Below, one piece after another: positions 6,209 through 25,018 of a stretch of DNA of 62,501 bases (the stretch's first letter is position 1; each line of letters begins with the position of its first letter). Made by a program: the position numbers and the translations under genes. The notes under the pieces were generated by a model. That model saw only the letters and a program-made list of their open reading frames with translations. It had not been told where the DNA came from and searched no databases. This DNA comes from Flavobacteriaceae bacterium (GTDB taxonomy: Bacteria; Bacteroidota; Bacteroidia; Flavobacteriales; Flavobacteriaceae): NCBI GenBank assembly GCA_036396455.1, contig DASWKU010000318.1, positions 1 through 62,501 of the forward strand. The letters run 5' to 3'.

Positions 6209-8432
6209 TAAAAACGAACATAAAATATTGAATTTAAAACACTTTTTTGGGGCGTTAATTTTGGTCTTTGCTTTTAATTGTAGTAAAGCTTCTGACAGTC
6301 CTAGTCCAAATCCAAATCCAGATCCAATGCCAACCAATGTGTTAAGGGAAATTTTCGAGTTTAAATTTAGCGAAACTTCAGGTACTGTTACATCAGAGAC
6401 TTTTACAGATAATGACTTTAATGTTATGGGAAGTGCCGTAAACCGGATGGGTGGTGTTCAAGGGAATGGGTTATTTTTTGATGGGCTTTCCAATGAAGTG
6501 AAGGGAACATTGCCAACCAGTCAAATGCCCAATATGAATTTTGTTGTGTCTTTATGGACATCACCGAAAGCTTATCCAATTGGAAAAGCCGCCATGTTGG
6601 CTTTAACTTCTATAAACTCTAATACAGGAGTAATGGTAGGGTTGAATAAATACGGACAGATAGTTGTTCAATATTATATAAATGGTGCTTTTTCTGAACA
6701 AATTACTACTGAAAGTTTAAAAAGAGATCAGTGGAATCATGTAGTCGTTGGCTTGACTTCAGAAAAGAAATATGTTATAATTTATTTAAATGGTGTTGCA
6801 CTTAAAACTGCTAATGTGCCATCGGGGAGCATCTCTTGGCCAACAACCAACACCCCTGTGTCCATAGGTAAAAACACAATGAATGAAATGATGGGTATTT
6901 ACGATATTGATTATTTCTCAGGTGCATTAGATGAGATAAAAATTTATGCTGGTGAAGCTACTCAAGAAAATGTTAATAAAATAAAAAACAACTACAATGC
7001 TCCAAACACAGTAAATTATTCAAACAGCATAGATTTTTCTGGTGATAGTAATCGTCCTACATATCATCCAATTCCTGATTATGGTTGGGCGAATGAATCT
7101 TATGGATTGATATACCAAGGTAATAAATACCACATGTTTTATCAAAAAAACGAGGTGTTTTTGGGTATCTCTCAACAAAATTGGGGCCACTTCACAAGTA
7201 CAGATTTGGTGAAATGGGATGAACAAAATGCAGTATTATGGCCTACTCCAGGTTGGGATAATTTTGGTATTTGGAGTGGAGGCTCAATAATTCTTCAAGA
7301 TGGTACGCCTGCAGTTGTGTATACAGGAGTTGATGGAGTAAAAGCGGGGATAGGAACAGCCACTTCTTCTGATAATTATCAAACTCTTAATAAAAATCAG
7401 AGTAATCCAGTAATTCCAACTGCTCCAAACACAGTTGATATGGATTTTCGCGATCCTTTTGTGTGGTTTAAAGACGGAAAATATCATATGATTATAGGTA
7501 GTGGTATTTCGTCTACCGGAGGTAATGTAGTGTACTATAGTAGCACAAATTTTAATAGCTGGACTTATGGAGGCATTTCTTTACAAGGGAGTAAGGCTAA
7601 TGGGGAAGGTGCCTTTTGGGAAGTACCCATTTTATATGAATTTCCTAACGGAAAAGAAATGTTATTGGTGCAAAAAACACCAGATGCAACTCCAGCCAGG
7701 ACATTTTATTGGATTGGGGAATTTGAAAACGGAATGTTTACACCAGATTTTACAATACCTAAAAATTTAGAAGTAGTTAATGGTTTTTTATCTCCTACTG
7801 TTACAACTGATCAAACTGGTCTCACCACAGCAATTGGTATTATACCAGATGAAGTAAATGCAGACTTCCAAATGGAACAAGGTTGGGCCAATTTATTTAG
7901 TGTACCTCAAGTTTGGGATCTTGACGCAAACAATAATGTTATAGTAAAACCGCACCCCAATTTAAACAGTTTGCGAGGTAGCGTAATTAGTTTTAATGGA
8001 CTATCCATCCAAGCTGGAGGCTCAAATTATTTGAATAATTACAATGGACGTCATTTTGAAATGGAAGCTATAATTAATACAGGTGATGCGAATCAGATAG
8101 GGTTTATTTTCGGTAAAACACCCAATAATGAAGAGTTTTATAGAGTATATTATGATATGATAACCCAAGAATGGGTGGTTGATGCTGCTAACTCATCTTT
8201 AAGTACTAAAGTAAGACGTGATGTTAGAAAAGGGTCTTATTCCATTTCTCCAGGAAGTACAATTAATTTAAGAATATTTATTGATGGTTCCGTTTTAGAA
8301 GTCTTTTTAGATAATAAAGCGCATTTTACTGGACGATTTTTTCCAACATTTACCAATGCAACTGGGGTAGATTTATTTGCCATTGGAGGTACTGCAACAG
8401 CAGATATAAACTTATATGATATTAACAACTAA
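6201..8432 (+). CDS. LamG-domain GH32 lipoprotein with variant nucleophile motif
   Basis: LamG-like region (FDG..WNHV..GALDEIKIY), then WANESYG, WSGG, FRDP and WEVP, plus a GH32 C-terminal domain. Confidence 0.88.
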   Translation: MINKNEHKILNLKHFFGALILVFAFNCSKASDSPSPNPNPDPMPTNVLREIFEFKFSETSGTVTSETFTDNDFNVMGSAVNRMGGVQGNGLFFDGLSNEVKGTLPTSQMPNMNFVVSLWTSPKAYPIGKAAMLALTSINSNTGVMVGLNKYGQIVVQYYINGAFSEQITTESLKRDQWNHVVVGLTSEKKYVIIYLNGVALKTANVPSGSISWPTTNTPVSIGKNTMNEMMGIYDIDYFSGALDEIKIYAGEATQENVNKIKNNYNAPNTVNYSNSIDFSGDSNRPTYHPIPDYGWANESYGLIYQGNKYHMFYQKNEVFLGISQQNWGHFTSTDLVKWDEQNAVLWPTPGWDNFGIWSGGSIILQDGTPAVVYTGVDGVKAGIGTATSSDNYQTLNKNQSNPVIPTAPNTVDMDFRDPFVWFKDGKYHMIIGSGISSTGGNVVYYSSTNFNSWTYGGISLQGSKANGEGAFWEVPILYEFPNGKEMLLVQKTPDATPARTFYWIGEFENGMFTPDFTIPKNLEVVNGFLSPTVTTDQTGLTTAIGIIPDEVNADFQMEQGWANLFSVPQVWDLDANNNVIVKPHPNLNSLRGSVISFNGLSIQAGGSNYLNNYNGRHFEMEAIINTGDANQIGFIFGKTPNNEEFYRVYYDMITQEWVVDAANSSLSTKVRRDVRKGSYSISPGSTINLRIFIDGSVLEVFLDNKAHFTGRFFPTFTNATGVDLFAIGGTATADINLYDINN

Positions 8433-11664: not shown

Positions 11665-13365
11665 ATGAAAAAAATTAAATTATTAATAACTGTAGCGATT
11701 ATAATTTTAGGATTTGCATCGTGTTCAAAGGACTATTTAGATGTTAGTCCGGAAAATGTAATATCTGAAGACAATTTAGATTTGGAACAGTTGGTGGTCA
11801 GTGCTTATAGTAGTTTGGATTATAGGTTCAACACAGGTGAGTTTAGAGATAACTGGCCATTTGATCATGCACCTTCCAATTGGTGTTTTTCAGATATAAG
11901 AAGTGGAGATGCGTACAAAGGTGGTGGTGGAGTAGGTGACAACCCAGGCGGCGGTATGCACGCTCTTGAAATTCACCAAGTTTTTCCATCTTCAGAAAAT
12001 GTGTATAATCTTTGGCGAGCTGTATATTTTGCAATTTATCGTATAAATAGTACTGTAACAGCCTTAACTAATAGCACAGATTTTGCAAATAAAGATTTAA
12101 GAATTGCTGAATTAAAAGTTTTACGTGCACATTTCTATTTTGAGTTGATGAAAAACTTTGGGTCTTTCGTCTATATTGATGAAAATACACCAGTAGCAAA
12201 TGTGCCTAATATTGAAAACTCATTTGATGAAACTTTTTTATGGGGTAAAATCGAAGGTGATTTAAATGCGGCAATAACTGTGTTACCTGATACTCAACCA
12301 GAATTGGGAAGGGTCAATAAACTTGTAGCCTATGCATTCTTAGCAAAAGCCAAGTTATTTCAAGGCCAATGGGCTGATGCTATAACCAACGCCGATAGAG
12401 TAATTGCAGGACCATATAGATTGGTTGATGATTTAGAAAAATTATATTCAACACCTGGTTACGGAAATGCAGAAAACGTATTCGCCATTCAATATTCTAT
12501 TGATGATGGTTCTGAATTTGGAAACCTTGATTTTGGTAACTTATTAAATTCACCGGATTCGCCATCTGACGACACCAACCATCCTTATTTAAATGGGGAT
12601 GATTTTGATAAACCTTCACAAAATATTGTAAATGCCTTTAAAGTTGATGGGAATGGTTTACCATTATTGGATACTTATAATGCGTCTGATTTAGCACCAA
12701 GAGATACAGCAACCCCTGTAGATACAAGGTTGGATCATGCTATTGGCCGCCCAGGAATAACTTGGAAACATTGGGCACCAATGCCAATGCAGGATAACTG
12801 GAATAGAGATATAGCAACTTATGGGTATTATGTAAGAAAGAAAAATCAAATTGACCCTAATTCGAATTTGAGAGCTTCCGGAGGATTTCCTTGGGCTAAA
12901 GGAGCATTGGATTGGGCAATCATTAAATTTAGTGATGTACTATTATGGAAAGCCGAGGCATCCATTGAGTTAAATGACTTATCTACAGGAATGAGTATAA
13001 TAAATCAAATTCGTTCAAGGGCTAAAACCTCCCCCTATGTTTATGATTTTAATAATCCTGCAATGGATGCTTCAAATTATTCAATTGGACTGTATCCAAC
13101 AAGTGGAATTACCCAAGATTACGCAAGAAAAGCTTTAAGGATGGAAAGAAGGTTGGAACTCAATAACGAGGGACATCATTTTTATGATTTGGTAAGATGG
13201 GGCATTGCAGCCAATTGGATTAATGATTACATGTTAACCGAAAGCGGAAAAAGAAGCTACTATAGTGGAGCCTCCTTTACTGCTGACCGAGATGAGTATC
13301 TTCCAATACCACAAATAGAAATTGATGCTACAGGGGGTGTTTATAAACAACGTTCGGGTTATTAA
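11665..13365 (+). CDS. susD: SusD/RagB nutrient-binding lipoprotein
   Basis: Lipobox ASC, LRAHFYF and ERRLEL..EGHHFYDLVRWG motifs; follows susC. Confidence 0.95.
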   Translation: MKKIKLLITVAIIILGFASCSKDYLDVSPENVISEDNLDLEQLVVSAYSSLDYRFNTGEFRDNWPFDHAPSNWCFSDIRSGDAYKGGGGVGDNPGGGMHALEIHQVFPSSENVYNLWRAVYFAIYRINSTVTALTNSTDFANKDLRIAELKVLRAHFYFELMKNFGSFVYIDENTPVANVPNIENSFDETFLWGKIEGDLNAAITVLPDTQPELGRVNKLVAYAFLAKAKLFQGQWADAITNADRVIAGPYRLVDDLEKLYSTPGYGNAENVFAIQYSIDDGSEFGNLDFGNLLNSPDSPSDDTNHPYLNGDDFDKPSQNIVNAFKVDGNGLPLLDTYNASDLAPRDTATPVDTRLDHAIGRPGITWKHWAPMPMQDNWNRDIATYGYYVRKKNQIDPNSNLRASGGFPWAKGALDWAIIKFSDVLLWKAEASIELNDLSTGMSIINQIRSRAKTSPYVYDFNNPAMDASNYSIGLYPTSGITQDYARKALRMERRLELNNEGHHFYDLVRWGIAANWINDYMLTESGKRSYYSGASFTADRDEYLPIPQIEIDATGGVYKQRSGY

Positions 13366-13409
13366 AATAAAAAACTATTAAAAATTAAAACATATCTAAA
13401 ATTATTAAG

Positions 13410-15239
13410 ATGAAAAACATATCTAAAATTATTGAACTGATTCCCTTCCTAGTTTTAGGAATAGTAATCACATTTATTTCTGGTTGTGATGATGAAATTA
13501 AATTTCAAGATTTAGCACCAGATTATACATATTCAATTGTTAGGTCATTCGAAGTTAATGGAGAGGCAGCTACAATAAACCATACAAATGGTACAATATT
13601 TCATTCTTTGCCAGCTGGTTCAGATTTAAGCAATGTAACAGTGGTTATCACTTTACCTGAAGGAGCTACTATTGACCCTTCTTCTGGAAGTACCGTAGAT
13701 TTTACTTCAGGCCCAGTAATATTCACTGTTAGTAATAATGATGTTTCAAGAGAATATACAGCAACAATAAATGCTTTTGGTGATCCAATGATTATGTCAT
13801 TTTCAATTGGAGAAAATGAAGGAACAATAGACCAAGTGAATGGAACCATTGCGGTAACAGTAGGCAGTCAGGAAAATATCATGACCTTATCACCGCTGTT
13901 TACAATTCCTGGTGGGACCACTGCAAGTCCAGCATCTGGTGTGGCTCAAGATTTTTCTTCACCGGTAAAATATACCATAACCTCTAATGATGGTTTTACT
14001 GGCAAGTCTTATTTTGTAACAGTAACTCAATTGGCATCTCCGTTAATAAGCTCCTTTGCTACTTCTGAAGATGTGTGTGCTGTAACTGGTACGATAAATA
14101 ATGATTTATCTACTATTTCGGTTATTCTTCCAGCAGGTTCTGATTTGACATCAATAGCACCAATAATTTCACTTAATGATGAATTGACTGTTTCACCTGA
14201 ATCTGGAGTTGCACAAGACTTTAGTCAAGGGCCTGTAACTTATGCAGTTACAAATCTTGAAAATTTAACAAAAGAATATCAAGTATCAATTAGTGCCGCA
14301 GATTCAACTCAAAAAGTAGTCTTTTTAGGAGAAGCAGATTGTATAAATACATTGGCTGATGACGATGCCAAATCAGCAGCGGAATATTTAAAAGCCCAGT
14401 ATCCTGATGATTTTACATATATTAAAATTGCAAATGTAACAGAAGCTGCCTTGGCAAACACCAATGTAGTTATGTTGTATTATTTAACTCCTCTTACTAG
14501 TGGGACTCAATATTTTGCAACAGATACTAATGTGATGACTTTATTGCCAGCAGAATTGCAACCAGGAGCTCCACAAGCAATTGCCTTAACTAATTGGTAT
14601 AAAAACGGTGGAAACATATTTTTAGCTGGAGATCCAACTTCTTTTATTCATGTATTGGGACGTATGCCAGCTGATTACTCTCAACCTCGTGGATTAGGAA
14701 ACTATCGCTATACAGAATTTGGCTGTTCCGGTGTTGGTGGTTGTGTAGATAGAGATAGACCAGCAGATGATGTATGGGGGTTAGGTGTAAGAGATTCTAA
14801 TAATTCAGGAAATCGTAGAGGTCATCCAATTTTTAATGGTTTGACTTTTAATGGTGACGGAGAACTTCCTCTATATAATGCCGGAACTCGTGAAGCAAGA
14901 TTAATATGGTGGCAACATATGGACGGTATTTTATCACCGGGATGTTGTGGTCAAGATACTGCCTTATTATTTGAACAAACCGTGAATGCTGTTAAACTAG
15001 GAACCTTACGTTGGATTGGTGATGCTTTTGGGTATGGCGCTATTGAATTTTTACCAACAAATGGTGGACTGGATGGAAATTTTGATTCAAGTATCGGAAC
15101 AGATTTTGCTGGTCGAATCATTTCACTTGAGAACACTATTATTGGATATGAATTTAATTCTAACGATGGAAGGGTTAATGATTTTCAAAGTAATATTGAA
15201 TTACTGACCTCAAATATCATTGACTATCTAAATAATTAA
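13410..15239 (+). CDS. Surface glycan-binding lipoprotein (repeated Ig-like modules + DUF4960-like domain)
   Basis: Lipobox SGC; three repeats ending P.SG..(Q/V)DF(T/S)..PV.(Y/F); C-terminal domain with DDDAKSAA; SusE position. Confidence 0.75.
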   Translation: MKNISKIIELIPFLVLGIVITFISGCDDEIKFQDLAPDYTYSIVRSFEVNGEAATINHTNGTIFHSLPAGSDLSNVTVVITLPEGATIDPSSGSTVDFTSGPVIFTVSNNDVSREYTATINAFGDPMIMSFSIGENEGTIDQVNGTIAVTVGSQENIMTLSPLFTIPGGTTASPASGVAQDFSSPVKYTITSNDGFTGKSYFVTVTQLASPLISSFATSEDVCAVTGTINNDLSTISVILPAGSDLTSIAPIISLNDELTVSPESGVAQDFSQGPVTYAVTNLENLTKEYQVSISAADSTQKVVFLGEADCINTLADDDAKSAAEYLKAQYPDDFTYIKIANVTEAALANTNVVMLYYLTPLTSGTQYFATDTNVMTLLPAELQPGAPQAIALTNWYKNGGNIFLAGDPTSFIHVLGRMPADYSQPRGLGNYRYTEFGCSGVGGCVDRDRPADDVWGLGVRDSNNSGNRRGHPIFNGLTFNGDGELPLYNAGTREARLIWWQHMDGILSPGCCGQDTALLFEQTVNAVKLGTLRWIGDAFGYGAIEFLPTNGGLDGNFDSSIGTDFAGRIISLENTIIGYEFNSNDGRVNDFQSNIELLTSNIIDYLNN

Positions 15240-15252
15240 TAAACTGATAATT

Positions 15253-16359
15253 ATGAATAAAGCAGTTATAAAAAATATTTTCGCGATTGTAGTTCTATTC
15301 ATAGGACTGCAATCTTGCGATGATAGGGAAAATTTTACCGATAGTCCATCGGTTCTAGATATAGTTGAAAGTGTATCAATAAATGGCAAAAATGCCGAGA
15401 TTGACCATTTAGCCGGAACAATAAACGTAAGTTTAGTAGGGAATACTAATTTGGCTTCAGTAATATTTGAAGCTACGGTTCCTGAGGGTGCTACCATTAG
15501 CCCAGAAAGTGGTTCAACATTAGATTTAACAAGTTCTGTAACCGTTGTTGTAAACAATGGTGTTAGCGACAGGTTTTATACTATAAATGTGACATTACTT
15601 CCATCTAAAATTGCGTTTTTAGGAGATGGAGCTGCAATTGCTGATATTGCCGATGATGATGTCAAAGCAGCAGCACAGTGGACACAATCTACATACGGCG
15701 GTGACTTTGTCTATATTTCTTATGACAATTTATCTGATGAAACTTTAGATGGAGTAAATGTTATTTTATATGTACACGATCAAGTAGGCTCATCGGCACA
15801 GCCAGCAGCTTTATTGGCTAATTTAAATGTGCTATCTAAATTTTATGTACAAGGAGGAAAAATAGTTGCAGGCTTATTAGGTACTGGTTTGGTTGAGGAA
15901 TTAGGAAGAGACACTTCCGGGTTGAGAAATATTATTGGTACTGGACCTGGTGGGCCCAATCCAGATACTTGGGGTGTTGGATTTACAGGTTCTTCTTTGG
16001 CAAATAATATTTCCAATGGCTTAACATTTTACGAACCAAATAAGGCTTTTGTTATTGATGGAGGATATAAAGAGGACCATAACGCATTGTGGAATTTAGA
16101 TCCAATTGATAGCCCAAAATATGCCAACTTCAATTCATTATATAATGCAGAACCAATAGCAGCATGGGATTGGGCCGTAGATGGTCAAGGATTTGCAGGA
16201 ATTGTAGTTTGGAAACCTTGGGATCGGTTTAAGGGATATATGATTACAATTGGCATTGGTGGAATGGAGTGGAGTATGAATGATGCAAGAAACAATCCTT
16301 ATTTGAGTAATGTCCAATTGATTTATAAAAATTCAATTGATTATTTAGCGTCATTATAA
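15253..16359 (+). CDS. Surface glycan-binding lipoprotein (Ig-like + DUF4960-like), paralogue of the preceding gene
   Basis: Lipobox QSC; shares PEGATI.P.SGST.D.TS and FLG.....ADDD.K.AA with 13410-15239. Confidence 0.75.
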   Translation: MNKAVIKNIFAIVVLFIGLQSCDDRENFTDSPSVLDIVESVSINGKNAEIDHLAGTINVSLVGNTNLASVIFEATVPEGATISPESGSTLDLTSSVTVVVNNGVSDRFYTINVTLLPSKIAFLGDGAAIADIADDDVKAAAQWTQSTYGGDFVYISYDNLSDETLDGVNVILYVHDQVGSSAQPAALLANLNVLSKFYVQGGKIVAGLLGTGLVEELGRDTSGLRNIIGTGPGGPNPDTWGVGFTGSSLANNISNGLTFYEPNKAFVIDGGYKEDHNALWNLDPIDSPKYANFNSLYNAEPIAAWDWAVDGQGFAGIVVWKPWDRFKGYMITIGIGGMEWSMNDARNNPYLSNVQLIYKNSIDYLASL

Positions 16360-16398
16360 ATTAAAGTTAGAAGTGAATTGTTTGAGTTAGTTTTAAAA

Positions 16399-16434
16399 TT
16401 CCGGAAGTCATTATTCACTTAATGTCTTCCGGAA
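16399..16434 (+). terminator. Intergenic hairpin (terminator or mRNA-stabilising element)
   Basis: TTCCGGAAG-T-CATTA...TAATG-T-CTTCCGGAA inverted repeat between the last two PUL genes. Confidence 0.55.
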
Positions 16435-16476
16435 AAATTAATTGTGAAATTTCAATGACAACAAAACAATGAAAAC

Positions 16477-18726
16477 ATGCATTATAATTATAAAATCTTA
16501 CTGTTTTTTATCTTAATTAGTAGTTTATTACAAGCTCAAAATCTGAAAATTGATTTTGATGGTGAAAACTGGTGGAATACTTTTCAAAAAGACCATCAAG
16601 TGCATCTTTATAATTCACCATACAGTCTAGAATCTGAAAACCCACATTACCTGTGGAAACCAATCGGTTCAGGAGGAGGTTCGCTCCTTTTCGATGGATA
16701 TTCTACTTATATGGAGATTGAAGATGTTAAGCTTTCTAAAACTTTTGATTTAAGTTTCTGGATAGCTCCAAGAGCTTTTGACAGTGCCATAGATAATAAA
16801 TTAGCGGCTATTATAGATTATTTTTCTAAAAAGGATTCAATTGGGTTTAAAGTGGGTTTGCTAAAACATGGTCAATTGGTCATTCAATACGATATTGGAA
16901 ATGATAAGAAACGTTTTATGAACGATCAATTATTTCTACAAAAAAACAGATGGAATTTCGTTAATATTTTACAGGACTCGCAGACTTTAAAGGTGCTATT
17001 AAACGGTAAAGAATTGTTGAAAGAGCCTTTAGATAGTTCAGTGGTTGATAAACAATTTAGTGGTAATGATTATGTTTTAACTATTGGCAGAAATTCCAAT
17101 GCCAGTGGTTTTGGTAGAAAATTTAAGTTCAATATGATTAGTGGAATTATCGATGATATTTCCATTAAACCTTTAAATGATTCCAATAAGATAGTACTTG
17201 ACCTCGATTCACGTCTACGGCAAGATATTACTAAACATTTAAGACTTGATTATACCAAGTTCGACGATGTGTTTAGGCCTAAATACCATGCCATTGCACC
17301 AGCACATTGGATGAATGAACCTCATGCGCCATTATATTATAATGGCAAATATCATCTTTTTTATCAACACAATCCTTTTGGACCATATTGGGAACAAATT
17401 CATTGGGGGCATTGGGTAAGTGACGATATGGTTCATTGGAAGCATGCAGATATTGCTTTGGCTCCAGAAAAAGGAACTGTAGATCCTGATGGTATTTGGT
17501 CTGGTTCGGCTTATATAGGGCAAGATAATACACCCTTGCTTTTCTACACAGCTGGAAACGATGCTAAAAAAGAAAATCAATATACATCAATAGCATACCC
17601 TAAAGACCAGAGCGATAAGAATCTAATCTCTTGGGAAAAATCTGGAATTATAGTCGAAAAACCATCAGAGTATTTACATAGGGAATTTCGCGATCCTTTT
17701 GTTTTCAAAATAGATTCCAAGTATTACATGATTGTTGGTAGTGGCATTGCTGAAAAAGGAGGAACGGCTGCTTTGTTTGAATCTGAAGATGCCAAAAACT
17801 GGAACTATCTTCATCCATTTTATCAAACCGATATTAAAAAGTATCCATTTATGGGAGGTGTTTGGGAGTTGCCTGTTTTTCTCCCTTTGCCTAACGAGGA
17901 TGGTACAAGCACCAATAAATTTATTTTTATGGTATTGCCACTCAGGGATGAAGCTGATGTGGAAGTATTTTATTGGGTTGGAGCTTTTGACAAGGAAGCA
18001 AAAAAGTTTATACCAGACCAAGAAAAACCATCCCTAATGGACTATGGAGATTTTGGGTTTACAGGACAAAGTGGTCTTGTGGACCCTAAAACCAATAGAT
18101 CGATAGTCTTTTCTATAGCTCAAGGAAAGTTTGGGAATATCGACACCTATAATATGGGATGGGCTCATAATGCTGGTTTACCAATTAGCCTGTGGCTTGG
18201 AAAGAGCGATGAACTCAATTTTGCACCTATTAATGAACTTAAATCGTTAAGGGGAAAACCTTTGATAATCTGTGAAAATTGTGAAGTTTCAAAACTTAAA
18301 AAGGATTTAAAAGAAATAAAGGGAGATCAACTTGAGATTATTTTAGAGTTTAAATCAGGAAAGGATAAAAAAGGAATTATTGTTAGAAAGTCTAATTCTG
18401 GAAACCCTCAAGCTATGATTTATTTTGACCCTACAACAAATTCTGTGGTTTTTGATAAAATACAAGATAATCCAGAACGAAAATTCACAGCAATTAAAGC
18501 ACCAGTTTCAAATACTAAAGATATCAAGCTTCATATTTATTTAGATAAATCGATGATTGAAATTTATATCAATAATCAAGTATCCATTACAGATCGAATT
18601 TATTTTACAGATACCGATGCAAAATACATAGAATTAATGGGGTTTGAAGATGGTATCAAGATAAAAAAACTCCATATCTGGCCTATGAACTCGATTGATT
18701 GGGAATATGTGGAATCATCAAAATAG
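16477..18726 (+). CDS. LamG-domain GH32, endo-inulinase/cycloinulo-oligosaccharide fructanotransferase-like
   Basis: Signal peptide, LamG region, HWMNEPHAP..QIHWGHW, WSGS, FRDP and WELP. Confidence 0.88.
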   Translation: MHYNYKILLFFILISSLLQAQNLKIDFDGENWWNTFQKDHQVHLYNSPYSLESENPHYLWKPIGSGGGSLLFDGYSTYMEIEDVKLSKTFDLSFWIAPRAFDSAIDNKLAAIIDYFSKKDSIGFKVGLLKHGQLVIQYDIGNDKKRFMNDQLFLQKNRWNFVNILQDSQTLKVLLNGKELLKEPLDSSVVDKQFSGNDYVLTIGRNSNASGFGRKFKFNMISGIIDDISIKPLNDSNKIVLDLDSRLRQDITKHLRLDYTKFDDVFRPKYHAIAPAHWMNEPHAPLYYNGKYHLFYQHNPFGPYWEQIHWGHWVSDDMVHWKHADIALAPEKGTVDPDGIWSGSAYIGQDNTPLLFYTAGNDAKKENQYTSIAYPKDQSDKNLISWEKSGIIVEKPSEYLHREFRDPFVFKIDSKYYMIVGSGIAEKGGTAALFESEDAKNWNYLHPFYQTDIKKYPFMGGVWELPVFLPLPNEDGTSTNKFIFMVLPLRDEADVEVFYWVGAFDKEAKKFIPDQEKPSLMDYGDFGFTGQSGLVDPKTNRSIVFSIAQGKFGNIDTYNMGWAHNAGLPISLWLGKSDELNFAPINELKSLRGKPLIICENCEVSKLKKDLKEIKGDQLEIILEFKSGKDKKGIIVRKSNSGNPQAMIYFDPTTNSVVFDKIQDNPERKFTAIKAPVSNTKDIKLHIYLDKSMIEIYINNQVSITDRIYFTDTDAKYIELMGFEDGIKIKKLHIWPMNSIDWEYVESSK

Positions 18727-19253: not shown

Positions 19254-22200
19254 ATGGCGTTATTCCAAACCTCCGTATTAAAAACATATCTCACGCAACA
19301 GGATCATGCTTTGGTAGGGCTAGCTTATAAAAAATACACCACCTATTTTCACAATGCGACCATACAAGAGAATATCAAAAATTCCAAAGAGGAACAATTT
19401 CAAGCTACGTTTTTAATAGAACTTTTTGTAAACATTCTGGATTACACCCTTAATCCCAATCCTAATTTCAACCTCACTACCGAGTTCAAAAATCAAACCG
19501 GTGCGGGGAAAGCAGACGGAGCTATTCTAAAAGGGAATACAGCCATTGGGGTCATAGAATTAAAAGGGACCAACACCAAGGATTTAGAAAGTATCCGAAA
19601 ACAAGCTTTTGACTATAAAGCCAATCAAAAAGGTTGTGTATATGTGGTGACATCGAATTTTGAGAAGTTGCGATTTTATATTAATGATGCCACCGAGTTT
19701 TTGGAGTTCAACCTGTTTCAGTTGGCACCGGAAGAATTCGCCTTGCTATATCTGTGCCTGCAAAAAGACAACATCCATAATAACCTTGCCCTAACGATCA
19801 AAGAAGCCTCTTTGGTGGTTGAAGATAACATTACCAAACAGTTTTATAACGATTACTCGGTTTTTAAACGCGAACTCTTTAGGGATTTGGTAAAACGCAA
19901 TGCCAAACGTATGAAAATTGAATCGGTCGTTGCGAGCGAAGTGCGGCAATCTCATGATGATAGCAACACTAACGAGAACAAAGCACTCGAAAAAAACGTC
20001 AAACTATCCCTATTCAAAAAATCGCAAAAGCTCATAGACCGCTTTCTGTTCATTTTCTTTGCCGAAGACAGGGGCCTTTTACCACCAAACAGTACCATAC
20101 AAATTTTGGATAAGTGGAAAGCCGACATCGATTTTGGTGATGAACGCCCATTGTACAACCTCTTTAAACAGTACTTCCATTTCTTGGATTCGGGCAGAAA
20201 GGGCACCACCTCAAGGGCAGAAATCTACGCTTACAATGGTGGATTGTTTAACCCCGATGCCATTCTGGACACTCTCGAAATTGATGATGATTTACTCTAT
20301 AAACATACCTACAAACTCGCCAAATACGATTTTAGCAGTCAGGTGGATGTCAATATTTTAGGGCATATCTTTGAAAACTCACTCAACGAGATTGAAAGCG
20401 TGAATGCCGAAATTGAAGGCGGTGCCTTTGATAAGCAAACAAGCAAACGTAAAAAGGATGGTGTGTTCTACACCCCAAAATACATTACCAAATACATCGT
20501 AGAACATACCGTTGGCAAGCTCTGCCAAGAGAAAAAAGAAGCCCTAGGCTTTAAGGAGGAAGCCTATTTTGAGGTCAAAAAGGGCACGCACCAAAACACC
20601 AAAAAGCAACTGTTGGGGGTGTTGGATTCCTACCGTGAATGGCTCCTGCAAATCACCATTTGCGACCCCGCTTGTGGCTCTGGTGCATTCTTAAACCAAG
20701 CGTTGGACTTTCTCATAAAAGAGCACCGTTACATAGACGAGCTTAAAGCCAAGGTCACGGGGGGCAGCCTTATTTTAAGCGATATAGAAAACACCATATT
20801 GGAAAACAACATCTATGGGGTTGACCTCAATGAGGAAAGTGTAGAAATCGCCAAACTTTCCCTTTGGTTACGTACTGCACAACCTCGCCGTAAACTCAAC
20901 GATCTGAGCAACAACATTAAATGTGGCAACTCTTTAATAAACGACAAAAAAGTAGCCGGCGATAAAGCTTTCAATTGGGAAACGGAGTTTCCGCATCTCT
21001 TTAAAGAAAAGGACAAAAAGGCGTACCACATTACCACGTCCGTACACGATAGCAGGACTTCTGAACGCATGAAAACCTACAAGGTTCGCGAACGTAGAGC
21101 CATGGGTACCAATCCCTATCCGAATGTACACTATTTTACAACGGACGATAATTTGGTCATTACCCAAACCCTGGCCACTATTGTAGAGGAGGATCGGCTC
21201 CAGTTATTGGCATACAATATTTGTGGCGACCATATCCATTTACTATTGGTCTGCGAACTTGATGAGGTACCGGGGATCATGCAAAAAATAAAGTCGGTTA
21301 CTTCCAAGATGGTGCACAGAGTGCGTGGTGCTACAAGGGAGCACGCTCCCTTGTCGAATACGCCCTTGTGGCAACAAAAGTACAGTGCGCCGAAAGAGAT
21401 TACCAGCACCGAGCAGTTGCACAATACCCTAAAGTATATACAAAGCAACCGGCAAAAGCACCAGTTACCACCACATAGCAAACAATTACAAGACCTTATC
21501 GATACTATGTGCTGTAGCGTAGATGATGCCTTTAAGCCAGAATACCTTGGCGGCTTTGATGTGGTGATTGGGAATCCGCCTTATGTAAGAGCCGAACTTC
21601 TTACCGAATATTTAAGATATTTTGAAAAGAACTATAAAGTTTATCACTCCGCAAGTGACCTATTTGCCTATTTCTATGAATTAGGTTCAAAAATTATAAA
21701 CAAAAAAGGTTTAATGGGTTATATATCCAATACTTTCGATAAAACAACAGCAGGAAAAGTATTAAGAGACTATTTAGCTACAAGAACTAATCTAAAACAA
21801 TACATAGACTTTACAGAAGTTAAAATATTTGAAGGAGCAACTACATATCCAGTTATAATTATACTTCAAAATTATTATAATAACAAGAGTAAATTTAAGT
21901 ATATTAAAATTCCAAAATCTTCACAAAACAGGGTAATAGATATTGATATTGAAAATAAAATTGAAGTTTTACAAGACTCTTTGGATTCCAATAGTTGGTC
22001 CTTATCTTCAGTTGGGAAAGCTAAAATTTTAGATAAGATTTCTCAATTTTCTAATTTAAAAGAAACCTATGGGAAATGCTATTATGGCGTTAAAACAGCT
22101 TTAAATGATGCTTTTATTGTTAAAAATAATTGGCCTTATTCAGAGCATATAAAACCGATTTTGGAAGGGAAGGAAATTAAAAAATGGAACGTTCAGAAAG

Positions 22201-23042
22201 CAGAACAAAAGCTAATTCTTTTTAAAAGTAAATGGACTGATGAGTCTTATCCTGAAAAGTCAACAGAAGAAGAAAAACTTAACGCTTTAGTTCGTGATTT
22301 TCCAGAAATTTTGAACCACTTAATGCCATACAAAGAAAGCGCGATTAAACGATATGACAAAGGGGATTATTGGTGGGAATTAAGAAATTGTGCTTATTAT
22401 GACTTGTTTGATAAGCCTAAAATTATATTCCCCAATCTTCAAAATACCAATAAATTCTGTTTTGATGCAAAAGGTACTTTCGTTAATGCCCCAGCTGTAT
22501 TCTTACCAGTAGATAATAAAGCTTTATTCTGTATTCTTAATTCTAAAGTGGTTTGGGAGTTTCTTAAATCGATATGTGTTGTACGAAGCGGTGGGTACAT
22601 TGAAGTAAAACCTCAATATTTCGAACAAATCCCTATTCCTGAACTAAAAAACGAAAAGCAATTTGAGAGTAAAGCAAATAACGTTATTGGATTTATGAAT
22701 GACTTTCAACTTTTAGATTCAAGATTTCAGAATTACATTTCGACGAAGTTTCAAATCGAAAAACCAACCCGCAAACTTGAAAACTGGCACGAGCTGGACT
22801 TTGCAGACTTTATTAAAGAACTCAACAAGGCCATTAAAAAAGCAGGAGGCACAGCACTCACCAAAAAAGACGAGTTTGAGTGGTTGGAACTGTTTGAGGA
22901 TAATAAGAAAAAAGCCCAATCGCTAAAGATCCAAATTGCCCAAACAGAAACAGAAATAGATCAAATGGTGTATGGGCTGTATGGGTTGACAGAAGAAGAA
23001 ATTGCCATTGTTGAGGGGCAAGGGAGTTATAAGGGACTCTAG
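19254..23042 (+). CDS. Type IIG (Eco57I-like) restriction-modification enzyme, N6-adenine MTase, with inserted HUH transposase domain
   Basis: N-terminal PD-(D/E)XK-like ADG..IELKG; YAYNGGLF; GVFYTP; motif I DPACGSGAF; motif IV GNPPY; TaqI-C-like TRD (PKIIFPN). Confidence 0.92.
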   Translation: MALFQTSVLKTYLTQQDHALVGLAYKKYTTYFHNATIQENIKNSKEEQFQATFLIELFVNILDYTLNPNPNFNLTTEFKNQTGAGKADGAILKGNTAIGVIELKGTNTKDLESIRKQAFDYKANQKGCVYVVTSNFEKLRFYINDATEFLEFNLFQLAPEEFALLYLCLQKDNIHNNLALTIKEASLVVEDNITKQFYNDYSVFKRELFRDLVKRNAKRMKIESVVASEVRQSHDDSNTNENKALEKNVKLSLFKKSQKLIDRFLFIFFAEDRGLLPPNSTIQILDKWKADIDFGDERPLYNLFKQYFHFLDSGRKGTTSRAEIYAYNGGLFNPDAILDTLEIDDDLLYKHTYKLAKYDFSSQVDVNILGHIFENSLNEIESVNAEIEGGAFDKQTSKRKKDGVFYTPKYITKYIVEHTVGKLCQEKKEALGFKEEAYFEVKKGTHQNTKKQLLGVLDSYREWLLQITICDPACGSGAFLNQALDFLIKEHRYIDELKAKVTGGSLILSDIENTILENNIYGVDLNEESVEIAKLSLWLRTAQPRRKLNDLSNNIKCGNSLINDKKVAGDKAFNWETEFPHLFKEKDKKAYHITTSVHDSRTSERMKTYKVRERRAMGTNPYPNVHYFTTDDNLVITQTLATIVEEDRLQLLAYNICGDHIHLLLVCELDEVPGIMQKIKSVTSKMVHRVRGATREHAPLSNTPLWQQKYSAPKEITSTEQLHNTLKYIQSNRQKHQLPPHSKQLQDLIDTMCCSVDDAFKPEYLGGFDVVIGNPPYVRAELLTEYLRYFEKNYKVYHSASDLFAYFYELGSKIINKKGLMGYISNTFDKTTAGKVLRDYLATRTNLKQYIDFTEVKIFEGATTYPVIIILQNYYNNKSKFKYIKIPKSSQNRVIDIDIENKIEVLQDSLDSNSWSLSSVGKAKILDKISQFSNLKETYGKCYYGVKTALNDAFIVKNNWPYSEHIKPILEGKEIKKWNVQKAEQKLILFKSKWTDESYPEKSTEEEKLNALVRDFPEILNHLMPYKESAIKRYDKGDYWWELRNCAYYDLFDKPKIIFPNLQNTNKFCFDAKGTFVNAPAVFLPVDNKALFCILNSKVVWEFLKSICVVRSGGYIEVKPQYFEQIPIPELKNEKQFESKANNVIGFMNDFQLLDSRFQNYISTKFQIEKPTRKLENWHELDFADFIKELNKAIKKAGGTALTKKDEFEWLELFEDNKKKAQSLKIQIAQTETEIDQMVYGLYGLTEEEIAIVEGQGSYKGL
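19926..19953 (+). repeat. In-frame REP-like palindromic element (reads VVASEVRQS)
   Basis: GTCGTTGCGAGCGAAGTGCGGCAATCTC resembles the recalled GTCATTGCGAGCGAAGCG..GCAATC repeat type and lies in a non-conserved loop. Confidence 0.55.
21009..21548 (+). mobile_element. IS200/RAYT-like Y1 HUH transposase domain embedded in the R-M ORF
   Basis: YHIT, AYNICGDHIHLLL (HUH at 21231-21239), IKSVTSK, LWQQKY and KYIQSN (Tyr at 21435-21437). It separates FNWETEFPHLFKE from GGFDVVIGNPPY, which are normally adjacent. Boundaries are approximate. Confidence 0.85.
21333..21354. repeat. REP-like palindrome within the HUH domain
   Basis: ACAAGGGAGC-AC-GCTCCCTTGT, a perfect 10-bp stem. Confidence 0.85.
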
Positions 23043-23086
23043 TCCCTTGAGGGGGCAAGGGAGGTTCAAGGGACTCTAGTCCCTTG
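23011..23086. repeat. Tandem pair of ~36-bp units, each with a REP-like palindrome
   Basis: AAGGGACT-CT-AGTCCCTT at 23031-23048 (contains the R-M stop codon) and CAAGGGACT-CT-AGTCCCTTG at 23067-23086. Each is preceded by TTGAG(4-5)CAAGGGAG. Confidence 0.9.
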
Positions 23087-24163: not shown

Positions 24164-24388
24164 TTAATGTACAAAATGTTGCATGCCAAATTCTAGCCTA
24201 AAAAGATTTGTATTTATTAGTGTAAAGTATTCAAATTTTAGAGCAACGATCCAATCATTTGCAGATTTGTTAAACCCTTTTGAATAGATGTGATTGTTGT
24301 GCTTGACCAAGCGTTCATCCATATCATGGGTCTCCCCGACATAATATGTGCCGATGGACCTGCTGTAAATGATATACAGAAAATGCAT
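24164..24388 (-). pseudogene. Truncated duplicate of the GIY-YIG nuclease gene
   Basis: The first 53 aa are nearly identical to 24683-24964; similarity stops after ALKFE (~24230). Confidence 0.85.
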
Positions 24389-24400
24389 TTTATAAGTGTA

Positions 24401-24578
24401 TGGGTGCACGACAAAAATCACTTTCCTGATATTTCATAAAAAAGAACGCTGATAACGCTGATTTTTATGATTTACGCAGTTTGTATCAGTGTCCCGAGGA
24501 ATCGGGACTGCCCGATCAGTGCCTTCTGCGTTCCATTATTTGCAACATAGATAAAAAAGAAGATATTTGTCGTACACC
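24401..24578. mobile_element. MITE-like non-coding insertion
   Basis: Absent from the otherwise matching spacer at 24965-24990. Imperfect TIRs GGTGCACGACAAAAATC and reverse-complement GGTGTACGACAAATATC. Flanked by the direct repeat AAGTGTA (24394-24400, 24579-24585). Confidence 0.75.
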
Positions 24579-24637
24579 AAGTGTATTTAAAACCAAAAAA
24601 CCCGAACGATTTGTCCGTCCCGAAGCGTCGGGATTTA

Positions 24638-24682
24638 TGGTGGTGCCTCCAGCTCCGAAGCGTCGGAGGAACCAGGGGGCAC
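24638..24682 (-). pseudogene. Duplicated 3' half of tRNA-Phe with a hairpin substituted in the T-arm
   Basis: Minus strand GTGCCCCCTGGTTC-[CTCCGACGCTTCGGAG]-CTGGAGGCACCACCA versus tRNA GTGTCCCTGGTTC-GATTC-CTGGAGGCACCACCA. Confidence 0.88.
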
Positions 24683-24964
24683 TCATTTTTGAGAGAGCAG
24701 ATCTTCCAATATCGATGGCTTTTGGATGATCCTGTTGATGAAGGTTTTGCTTTTCATCCTTTTCACAAATCTTTCGAGATAAAGGGCATCTTCTCTGGAC
24801 CTGCACTCAAATTTTAGAGCAATGATCCAATCATTTGCAGATTTGGTAAACCCTTTTGAATAGATGTGATTGTTGTGTTTGGCCAGACGTTCATCCATGT
24901 CATGGGTCTCCCCGACATAATATGTGCCGATGGATCTGCTGTAAATGATATACAGAAAATGCAT
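24683..24964 (-). CDS. Small GIY-YIG nuclease family protein
   Basis: FLYIIYS....YYVGET.D..ERL.KHN and A..LE.FVK.MKS, a typical stand-alone GIY-YIG pattern. Confidence 0.88.
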   Translation of the reverse strand: MHFLYIIYSRSIGTYYVGETHDMDERLAKHNNHIYSKGFTKSANDWIIALKFECRSREDALYLERFVKRMKSKTFINRIIQKPSILEDLLSQK

Positions 24965-25018
24965 TTTATAAGTGTATTTAAAACCAAAAAACCCGAACGA
25001 TTTGTCCGGGTCTTATTA

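Follow-up and report, generated by a model that had tools for sequence, protein, structure and literature searches.

The 62,501-nt stretch of DNA considered here (referred to as the window; Flavobacteriaceae bacterium, assembly GCA_036396455.1, contig DASWKU010000318.1) carries a gene for a predicted Type IIG restriction-modification enzyme, in which a PD-(D/E)xK nuclease motif, methyltransferase motifs I and IV and a target recognition domain (TRD) are found in a single chain. Between its GNSL motif and methyltransferase motif IV, the gene holds an in-frame HUH/Y1 domain resembling the REP-associated tyrosine transposases (RAYTs, or TnpA_REP proteins) of repetitive extragenic palindromes (REPs), and three related palindromes lie within the gene or at its end. 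In this study, we show that these three palindromes are members of a 20-bp REP-like family associated with the in-frame HUH domain. We consider it probable that they are footprints pasted by the domain into its own gene and not designed cut points.

All three palindromes, which had been described in an earlier note on this DNA, were recovered at their positions and above shuffle expectation: at up to one mismatch the pattern has these three matches in the window, compared with a mean of 0.23 and a maximum of 2 in 100 shuffles. The internal copy, ACAAGGGAGC-AC-GCTCCCTTGT, encodes TREHAPL in the loop before LWQ. The first 3′ copy, AAGGGACT-CT-AGTCCCTT, provides the stop codon of the Type IIG gene (TAG, 23040-23042) and is followed by the second, CAAGGGACT-CT-AGTCCCTTG. 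The two 3′ copies form a 35-nt tandem duplication (23015-23049 and 23052-23086; 91% identity, spacing 37), each unit of which opens with a left half-copy, CAAGGGAG, and the two palindromes are also capable of mutual pairing (DNA fold z -4.3). Across the 3.75-Mb genome there are six matches to AAGGGA-N4-10-TCCCTT, and a self-complementary core is found only in the three of the window; because a loose genome pattern is matched by chance in HUH-free genomes, only self-complementary genome matches were counted. A single low-depth contig of a related strain (run X3, window 23089) carries another repeat variant next to where the TerC-family gene ends and differs in the sequence upstream, and in three of four congeneric genomes the TerC-family neighbours lie in another context, without the repeat.

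The relationship between repeat and domain was followed in alleles pooled from several searches, two of which are represented by their best 80 of 153 and best 80 of 190. The N-terminal part was present in 219 loci, of which 162 were complete; dropping equal-length copies more than 98% identical left 138. The final set holds 103 HUH-bearing and 35 HUH-free genes, with an intact frame in 87 and 31, respectively; this ratio reflects the searches, not nature, and some near-duplicates remain. The anchored 20-bp motif CAA.GG-N8-CC.TTG, whose core is self-complementary, has 224 matches (75 variants) in the 103 HUH-bearing genes and none in the 35 HUH-free ones, so that the comparison of HUH-containing with HUH-free alleles proposed in the earlier note bears out the association. 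A palindrome lies within the HUH module in 99 of the 103 genes, and the inner stem positions 8 and 13 are paired in 72 of the 75 variants, with all four pair types present (shuffle mean 19; a 12-row count agrees). Relatives of the gene occur in 37 of 301 genomes of the family, the closest of which (89-90% identical over amino acids (aa) 1-584) have no HUH insert. A search with the region returned 140 proteins, and among the 120 listed nearly all pair Pfam Y1_Tnp with Eco57I. The features of the locus are collected in the table.

Table. Features of the Type IIG gene and its palindromes in the window (pLDDT, predicted local distance difference test)
Feature	Position (nt)	Strand	Remarks
Type IIG restriction-modification gene	19254..23042	+	1262 aa, intact frame; Pfam Eco57I, TaqI_C, MmeI_Mtase, Y1_Tnp; PADLOC REase_MTase_IIG PDLC03609, E 1.3e-289
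Nuclease motif D88...E102-x-K104	19515..19565	+	Residues invariant in 118/118 intact alleles; internal beta-turn (aa ~95, model) is a hotspot for REPs in other alleles but has no copy here
CGTC-type repeat, unrelated to the palindromes	19926..19952	+	In frame at aa ~224; common to HUH-free sister alleles
In-frame HUH/Y1 (RAYT-like) module	21006..21548	+	aa ~585-765; missing from sister alleles 89-90% identical over aa 1-584
HUH motif H660-I-H662	21231..21239	+	H660 in 87/87 and H662 in 86/87 intact HUH-bearing alleles
Helix taken as equivalent of alphaC of TnpA_REP	21258..21323	+	KS/KA-type signature KSVTS at 21291-21305; helix in predicted model; class association; alphaC role from PMC3479197
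Internal REP-like palindrome	21333..21354	+	CnnG loop class (CACG); in frame, disordered loop between HUH and Tyr motifs; pLDDT <50 at aa 696-700; DNA fold z -2.3
Predicted catalytic Tyr728	21435..21437	+	87/87 intact HUH-bearing alleles
GGFDVVIGNPPY block (NPPY)	21549..21586	+	Methyltransferase motif IV and left junction of TRD cassette; highest synonymous conservation (0.67); junction in allele pairs; metagenome contig loose ends
TRD cassette, variable, low-GC	21587..22757 (right end approximate)	+	No REP in aa 778-1149 across 87 alleles
C-terminal segment, conserved, helical	22758..23014	+	Tracks N-terminal backbone; best match 85% to HUH-free L198
Tandem unit 1	23015..23049	+	Left half-copy 23019-23026 and palindrome 23031-23048, TnnA loop class (TCTA), stop codon inside; takes the place of the protein's usual last residues
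Tandem unit 2	23052..23086	+	Left half-copy 23056-23063 and palindrome 23067-23086; ends 6 nt ahead of the stop of a convergent TerC-family gene

Within the gene, the copies are concentrated at about eight recurrent hotspots (aa ~95, 390, 445, 697, 745, 1167 and 1200, and the gene end). Among the 87 intact alleles, perfect copies lie at aa ~95 in 12 alleles, at aa 215-250 in 3, at aa ~340 in 1, at aa ~390 in 12, at aa ~445 in 5, in the HUH loop in 67, at aa ~745 in 26, at aa ~1167 in 12, at aa ~1200 in 20 and past the stop in 3, with none in aa 778-1149. In-frame copies are confined to two of the three frames in 169 of 171 cases, and in the predicted full-length model the main insertion sites fall at turns, in loops or at helix ends. 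Two of these sites, aa 88-102 and 374-400, have a single length in 31 of 31 HUH-free alleles and 11 and 17 lengths, respectively, in HUH-bearing ones; at aa ~95 a repeat-derived peptide was recognized by reading in 18 of 18 changed alleles. Perfect copies total 192 across 447 kb of gene sequence, as against a single one across 506 kb of flanking sequence. The flanks themselves are highly varied, the 241 neighbouring open reading frames falling into 203 clusters, and we propose that it is this frequent change of chromosomal address that makes copies pile up within the gene and not around it. Among the 21 fused genomes with matches listed, copies away from the gene were found in G166 (4, intergenic), G311 (9), G309 (1) and G306 (one imperfect), and in most fused genomes the copies are confined to the gene. 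We also considered the repeats as ends of the whole gene and rejected this, as none of the 87 alleles has a copy within 300 nt upstream of the start. Phage carriage was likewise rejected: of 31 pattern matches in viral contigs, none is a relative.

The copies also differ in how they are joined to their surroundings. Half-copy junctions are spread over positions 7-15 of the 20-mer, and no cleavage site can be read from them; the arms are extended into local flanking sequence in 14 of 193 contexts. In alleles L107, L169, L174 and L102 the palindromes are stretched to 26-42 bp with outer arms that mirror the local flanks, which suggests fold-back copying. Large tandem expansions of repeat-containing units, some of them frame-breaking, occur in L098 (around 7100-7800), L081 and L027.

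The same HUH family is also found alone. The HUH tree (FastTree) shows the fused and lone forms interspersed, with 18 changes, 5 of them forced, some of the lone proteins being possibly fragments. In the genus of genome G802 the domain is present in 8 of 151 genomes, and 3 of these have it on its own, at a single conserved intergenic site (loci L257, L259, L261 and L269, the free-standing REP-flanked form and, in one genome, a lone palindrome) between what we take to be ilvA and a gapN-like gene. At L259 a palindrome lies right before the start, in the loop and right after the stop of the free-standing gene. Orthologous sites could be resolved in 24 of 30 cases: the gene is present at 2 and a lone palindrome (recognized by eye) at 1, the remaining 21 being empty. 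Genomes with the free-standing form contain 24, 10, 7 and 14 repeat copies, compared with 0-1 in controls. A decayed free-standing copy between unrelated genes (L125:2735-3400) retains a vestige of the motif IV block, an indication that it escaped from the restriction gene. As a separate observation, two short proteins (P0137 and P0129) have a restriction enzyme start or an upstream-loop remnant fused straight to the HUH domain, as if internally deleted.

It seems that the HUH domain and its hairpin vary together. Immediately ahead of the loop, the helix has a KG.. or a KS/KA.. signature, and the centre of the loop hairpin is TnnA with the former and CnnG with the latter in 76 of 77 classifiable alleles, with classes defined after the data had been seen and with eight alleles lacking a loop copy and two skipped. 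The class switches about 15-16 times on the tree. Outside the module, all 51 copies in KG alleles are TnnA, and those in KS/KA alleles comprise 12 CnnG and 7 TnnA; the repeat subclass inside the HUH module is the same as that outside it in 27 of 46 alleles (mean 9.4 and maximum 19 in permutations). In E. coli TnpA_REP (4ER8), helix alphaC sits within the hairpin's minor groove (PMC3479197), and for group 3 perfect-palindrome REPs, whose loop bases are crucial, the equivalent helix has been proposed to read them (PMC8266576), a proposal that the match found here fits. In the window, the KS helix and the CACG loop of the internal copy match, and the TCTA loops of the 3′ copies do not. Because its loop class is wrong for the resident HUH domain, the 3′ pair is likely a relic of an earlier HUH variant or allele, and the bracket formed with the matched internal copy therefore joins copies with likely different histories. 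The reading of the palindromes in the earlier note as cognate REPs of the embedded domain is thus supported at the family level, because among the alleles examined the motif occurs only with HUH and free-standing HUH genes are repeat-flanked with genome-wide copies, and is less secure for the 3′ pair, whose loop class normally accompanies the other helix type. Binding and cleavage of cognate REPs by the domain are putative.

With regard to its class, the domain (model pLDDT 92) has an HUH motif and a predicted catalytic tyrosine on a Y1 fold, as RAYT/TnpA_REP proteins do; Pfam Y1_Tnp is above its cut-off in the Type IIG protein, and the fold matches both 4ER8 and IS200/IS605 TnpA. The flanking and dispersed palindromes of the free-standing form (7-24 genomic copies) and the low gene copy number are likewise RAYT traits. 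By sequence it falls below both NCBIfam cut-offs, nearer the RAYT than the IS200 model (NF033573, 26 bits vs a cut-off of 55), and a search of solved structures gave only IS200/IS605 TnpAs, with weak E-values. IS200/IS605 insertion sequences have multiple near-identical copies, subterminal hairpins and a Y---Q motif, whereas the present domain occurs in 1-2 divergent copies per genome and reads YIxxNR, which also departs from the RAYT signature Y---NP. The dN/dS ratio (nonsynonymous to synonymous substitution rates) is 0.11 over 17 non-overlapping pairs, several of them near saturation. The source genome (G000) has one close HUH gene copy. A second, distant Y1 protein is encoded at G000:C16:16007-16279 (L255), with no such repeat nearby.

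The backbone, the HUH module and the TRD are three independently shuffling modules, because HUH presence changes repeatedly, pairs sharing a TRD differ in HUH and the C-terminal segment tracks the backbone. On the backbone tree (quick IQ-TREE), the module is gained or lost 20 times, 12 of these changes being forced by well-supported branches. Six cross-backbone pairs share a TRD and have HUH halves only 41-71% identical, and for the C-terminal segment a correlation is seen with the N-terminal backbone (rho 0.44-0.49) and not with the TRD (0.06).

Taken together, these observations are best accommodated if the palindromes are footprints of the domain. By analogy with TnpA_REP biochemistry, the domain would bind the repeat as a single-stranded hairpin, and Tyr728 would nick near the hairpin and the ends be rejoined, which could give rise to new copies, half-copies and short tandem duplications. 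Selection on the enzyme would then spare only in-frame copies in loops or at the gene end. Homologous recombination between the flanking conserved methyltransferase blocks is the likely route by which alleles gain and lose the module, and the module may occasionally escape as a free REP-flanked gene.

Several points weigh against this interpretation. Template switching can yield paired changes in a perfect palindrome without selection. The 5′ flank of the repeat is mostly (C/T)AAC in 193 contexts, with no GT(A/G)G foot of the kind that defines canonical REPs, and the domain scores 41.8-59.3 bits against the cut-off of 80 of the RAYT model NF047646. The 3′ pair of the window and the dispersed copies in G311, G843 and G912 include a loop class unlike that of the resident helix. 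Helix and loop are 20-60 nt apart, so their match may be plain linkage; their classes were set post hoc, copies outside the module may derive from the loop copy, and an independent-contrast test gave p 0.06 with five supported pairs, too few to reach significance. The HUH-bearing alleles were collected by HUH-targeted searches, allele pairs are non-independent and near-duplicates are left in the set. Moreover, passive footprints do not fully account for the catalysis kept in the fused form.

The earlier note had proposed that the internal and 3′ palindromes are paired cut points for excising or exchanging the 3′ half of the gene, and in the window copies do lie at both ends of the catalytic/TRD half. 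However, this layout, with one copy in the module and one at or past the stop, is common to 4 of 87 alleles and missing in 83, and segments are exchanged elsewhere. Among pairs with N-terminal segments at least 90% identical (non-independent), differing TRDs are seen in 26 of 28 pairs that bear HUH, 41 of 43 without it and 37 of 37 mixed ones; the left junction of the TRD falls directly behind the NPPY block (window 21586) in each of the four swapped pairs viewed base by base, with and without HUH, and its right junction near aa 1135-1175, whether or not the pairs bear HUH. The NPPY block also has a synonymous conservation of 0.67 versus 0.34-0.62 in 29 other conserved windows (half of the alleles). 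The pairs L020/L129 and L075/L147 keep both HUH halves (96-100%) despite different TRDs (26-29%), the C-terminal segment follows the backbone, as said above, and from the order of the motifs such a cut would part the HUH domain from its tyrosine. Metagenome contigs, assembled from 8 of 24 listed runs, diverge at both edges of the NPPY block in 8 of 8 runs, probably from alleles of other organisms. Among the loose ends listed for these assemblies none diverges at the internal palindrome, which three contigs bridge, and no joint skipping the stretch between the palindromes is listed, although contigs drop rare variants. The repeats do not coincide with the junctions of exchanged segments, as they would in site-specific exchange or a shufflon, and paired cut points are therefore largely refuted and very improbable. 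We find it equally hard to credit that the hairpins are kept for a role in RNA (as terminator, mRNA stabilizer between convergent genes or translation pause), with their symmetry arising by template switching and the HUH domain uninvolved. The 3′ pair does lie between two convergent stop codons and folds well, and the arms extended into local flanks are what fold-back copying would give; yet no terminator-like site was called at the 3′ pair, for which a terminator reading was rejected, 35 of 35 HUH-free genes and 99 of 103 HUH-bearing ones have no repeat beyond the stop, and neither the lack of matches in HUH-free alleles nor the flanking copies at free-standing HUH genes would be explained. 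A secondary role in RNA would be compatible with the footprint explanation.

A more active part for the domain, in which it nicks at the repeats to stimulate recombination of its own gene, either bringing the module into HUH-free alleles or speeding TRD exchange, with crossovers in conserved blocks away from the nick, seems to us unlikely. It would fit the gain or loss of the module at one site at least 12 times, its replacement in 22 of the 66 pairs whose upstream segments are 90% identical, the purifying selection on catalytic residues in the fused form, a helix-plus-loop segment that differs between the otherwise close alleles L052/L061, and the 33 of 87 alleles with some copy 3′ of the TRD and copies on both its sides. 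Nevertheless, the TRD exchange given above is near saturation without HUH and shows no boost with it, a saturation that would also mask one, and TRD and HUH move separately in the six pairs that share a TRD. It is also conceivable, if rather doubtful, that a RAYT-like nuclease has settled in a defence gene in the manner of an intein and homes between alleles without cutting the recipient: it would nick its own gene at the hairpins it has deposited, nick-driven gene conversion would move the HUH module, at times with a new TRD, into HUH-free alleles, and the adjacent helix and hairpin would switch together as a specificity cassette.

Other features of the locus bear on its history. The CGTC-type repeat is found at the same place in L198-L202 and L204, with five copies in the genome. 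Because this repeat is shared with HUH-free sisters and the N-terminal REP hotspots are empty, a recent arrival of the HUH module in the window is suggested. In the HUH-free sisters L003-L005 and L008 a CGTC-type repeat also fills the loop that houses the HUH module elsewhere. Downstream, window 24164-25008 contains two small GIY-YIG gene copies (171-nt repeat, spacing 576, 95%; one degraded) with inverted repeats nearby. Upstream of the restriction gene lies a gene cluster (window 11665-18726) whose last member is a GH32 glycoside hydrolase and which presumably represents a SusD-type sugar-uptake locus.

The persistence of RAYTs has been framed as unexplained, with vertical inheritance reported (PMC5581495; bioRxiv 10.1101/2021.07.10.451892), and why they persist though seemingly not self-copying has been raised as an open question (bioRxiv 10.1101/2021.07.10.451892). 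The present family offers a testable case, as the domain rides in a mobile, often recombining defence gene, exists with and without this host gene, and has sister alleles with and without it at hand. The two natural helix/hairpin classes are suited to a swap experiment. In addition, the repeats amount to a natural insertion scan of a Type IIG enzyme, with about eight tolerant loops, one of them within the nuclease motif.

No description of an HUH-Type IIG fusion was found in the literature searched, which included few subscription papers and no supplements. What is new here is the independent shuffling of backbone, HUH module and TRD, and the match of helix type and hairpin-loop class. The closest precedent is RAYT subclass 2.4, for which in-frame REPs are described within the gene of the transposase itself (Quentin et al. 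2018, PMC6006769); the main-text portions of that paper describe no such fusion, and its supplements may list similar Bacteroidetes repeats. The present system works like a subclass 2.4 REPtron, with an in-frame palindrome between the HUH and Tyr motifs, yet fails the motif and GTAG tests of that subclass: by motif descriptions, NH[IFV]H, YIxNNP and long or double-foot GTAG REPs are replaced by DHIH, YIxxNR and a perfect 20-bp palindrome without a GTAG foot. Here the domain is moreover nested in a 1262-aa restriction-modification enzyme, and copies also colonize the loops of this host. E. coli TnpA_REP (PDB 4ER8; PMC3479197) resembles the domain in fold (Z 11.4, root-mean-square deviation 3.0, 126 aligned over model residues 3-168, Tyr helix included) at 14% identity, tied with IS608 TnpA (Z 11.9, residues 1-137); in contrast to it and to group 3 TnpA_REP (PMC8266576), there is no GTAG guide here and the domain is embedded, not free. 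Type IIG enzymes with described allelic TRD diversity and exchange (PMC2853133, PMC3077401; MmeI 5HR4, BpuSI 3S1S, DrdV 7LO5) likewise combine nuclease, gamma-type adenine methyltransferase and TRD in one chain and replace the TRD via conserved flanks, whereas the present enzyme, whose activity is predicted, also has the HUH module, an optional second cassette that lies immediately upstream of motif IV and shuffles apart from the TRD. Finally, intragenic GTAG/CGTC repeats and Rickettsia palindromic elements (PMC3733652) are also short palindromes in frame in protein loops, but those are dispersed over many genes, while the copies described here are concentrated in the gene of their likely mobilizer.

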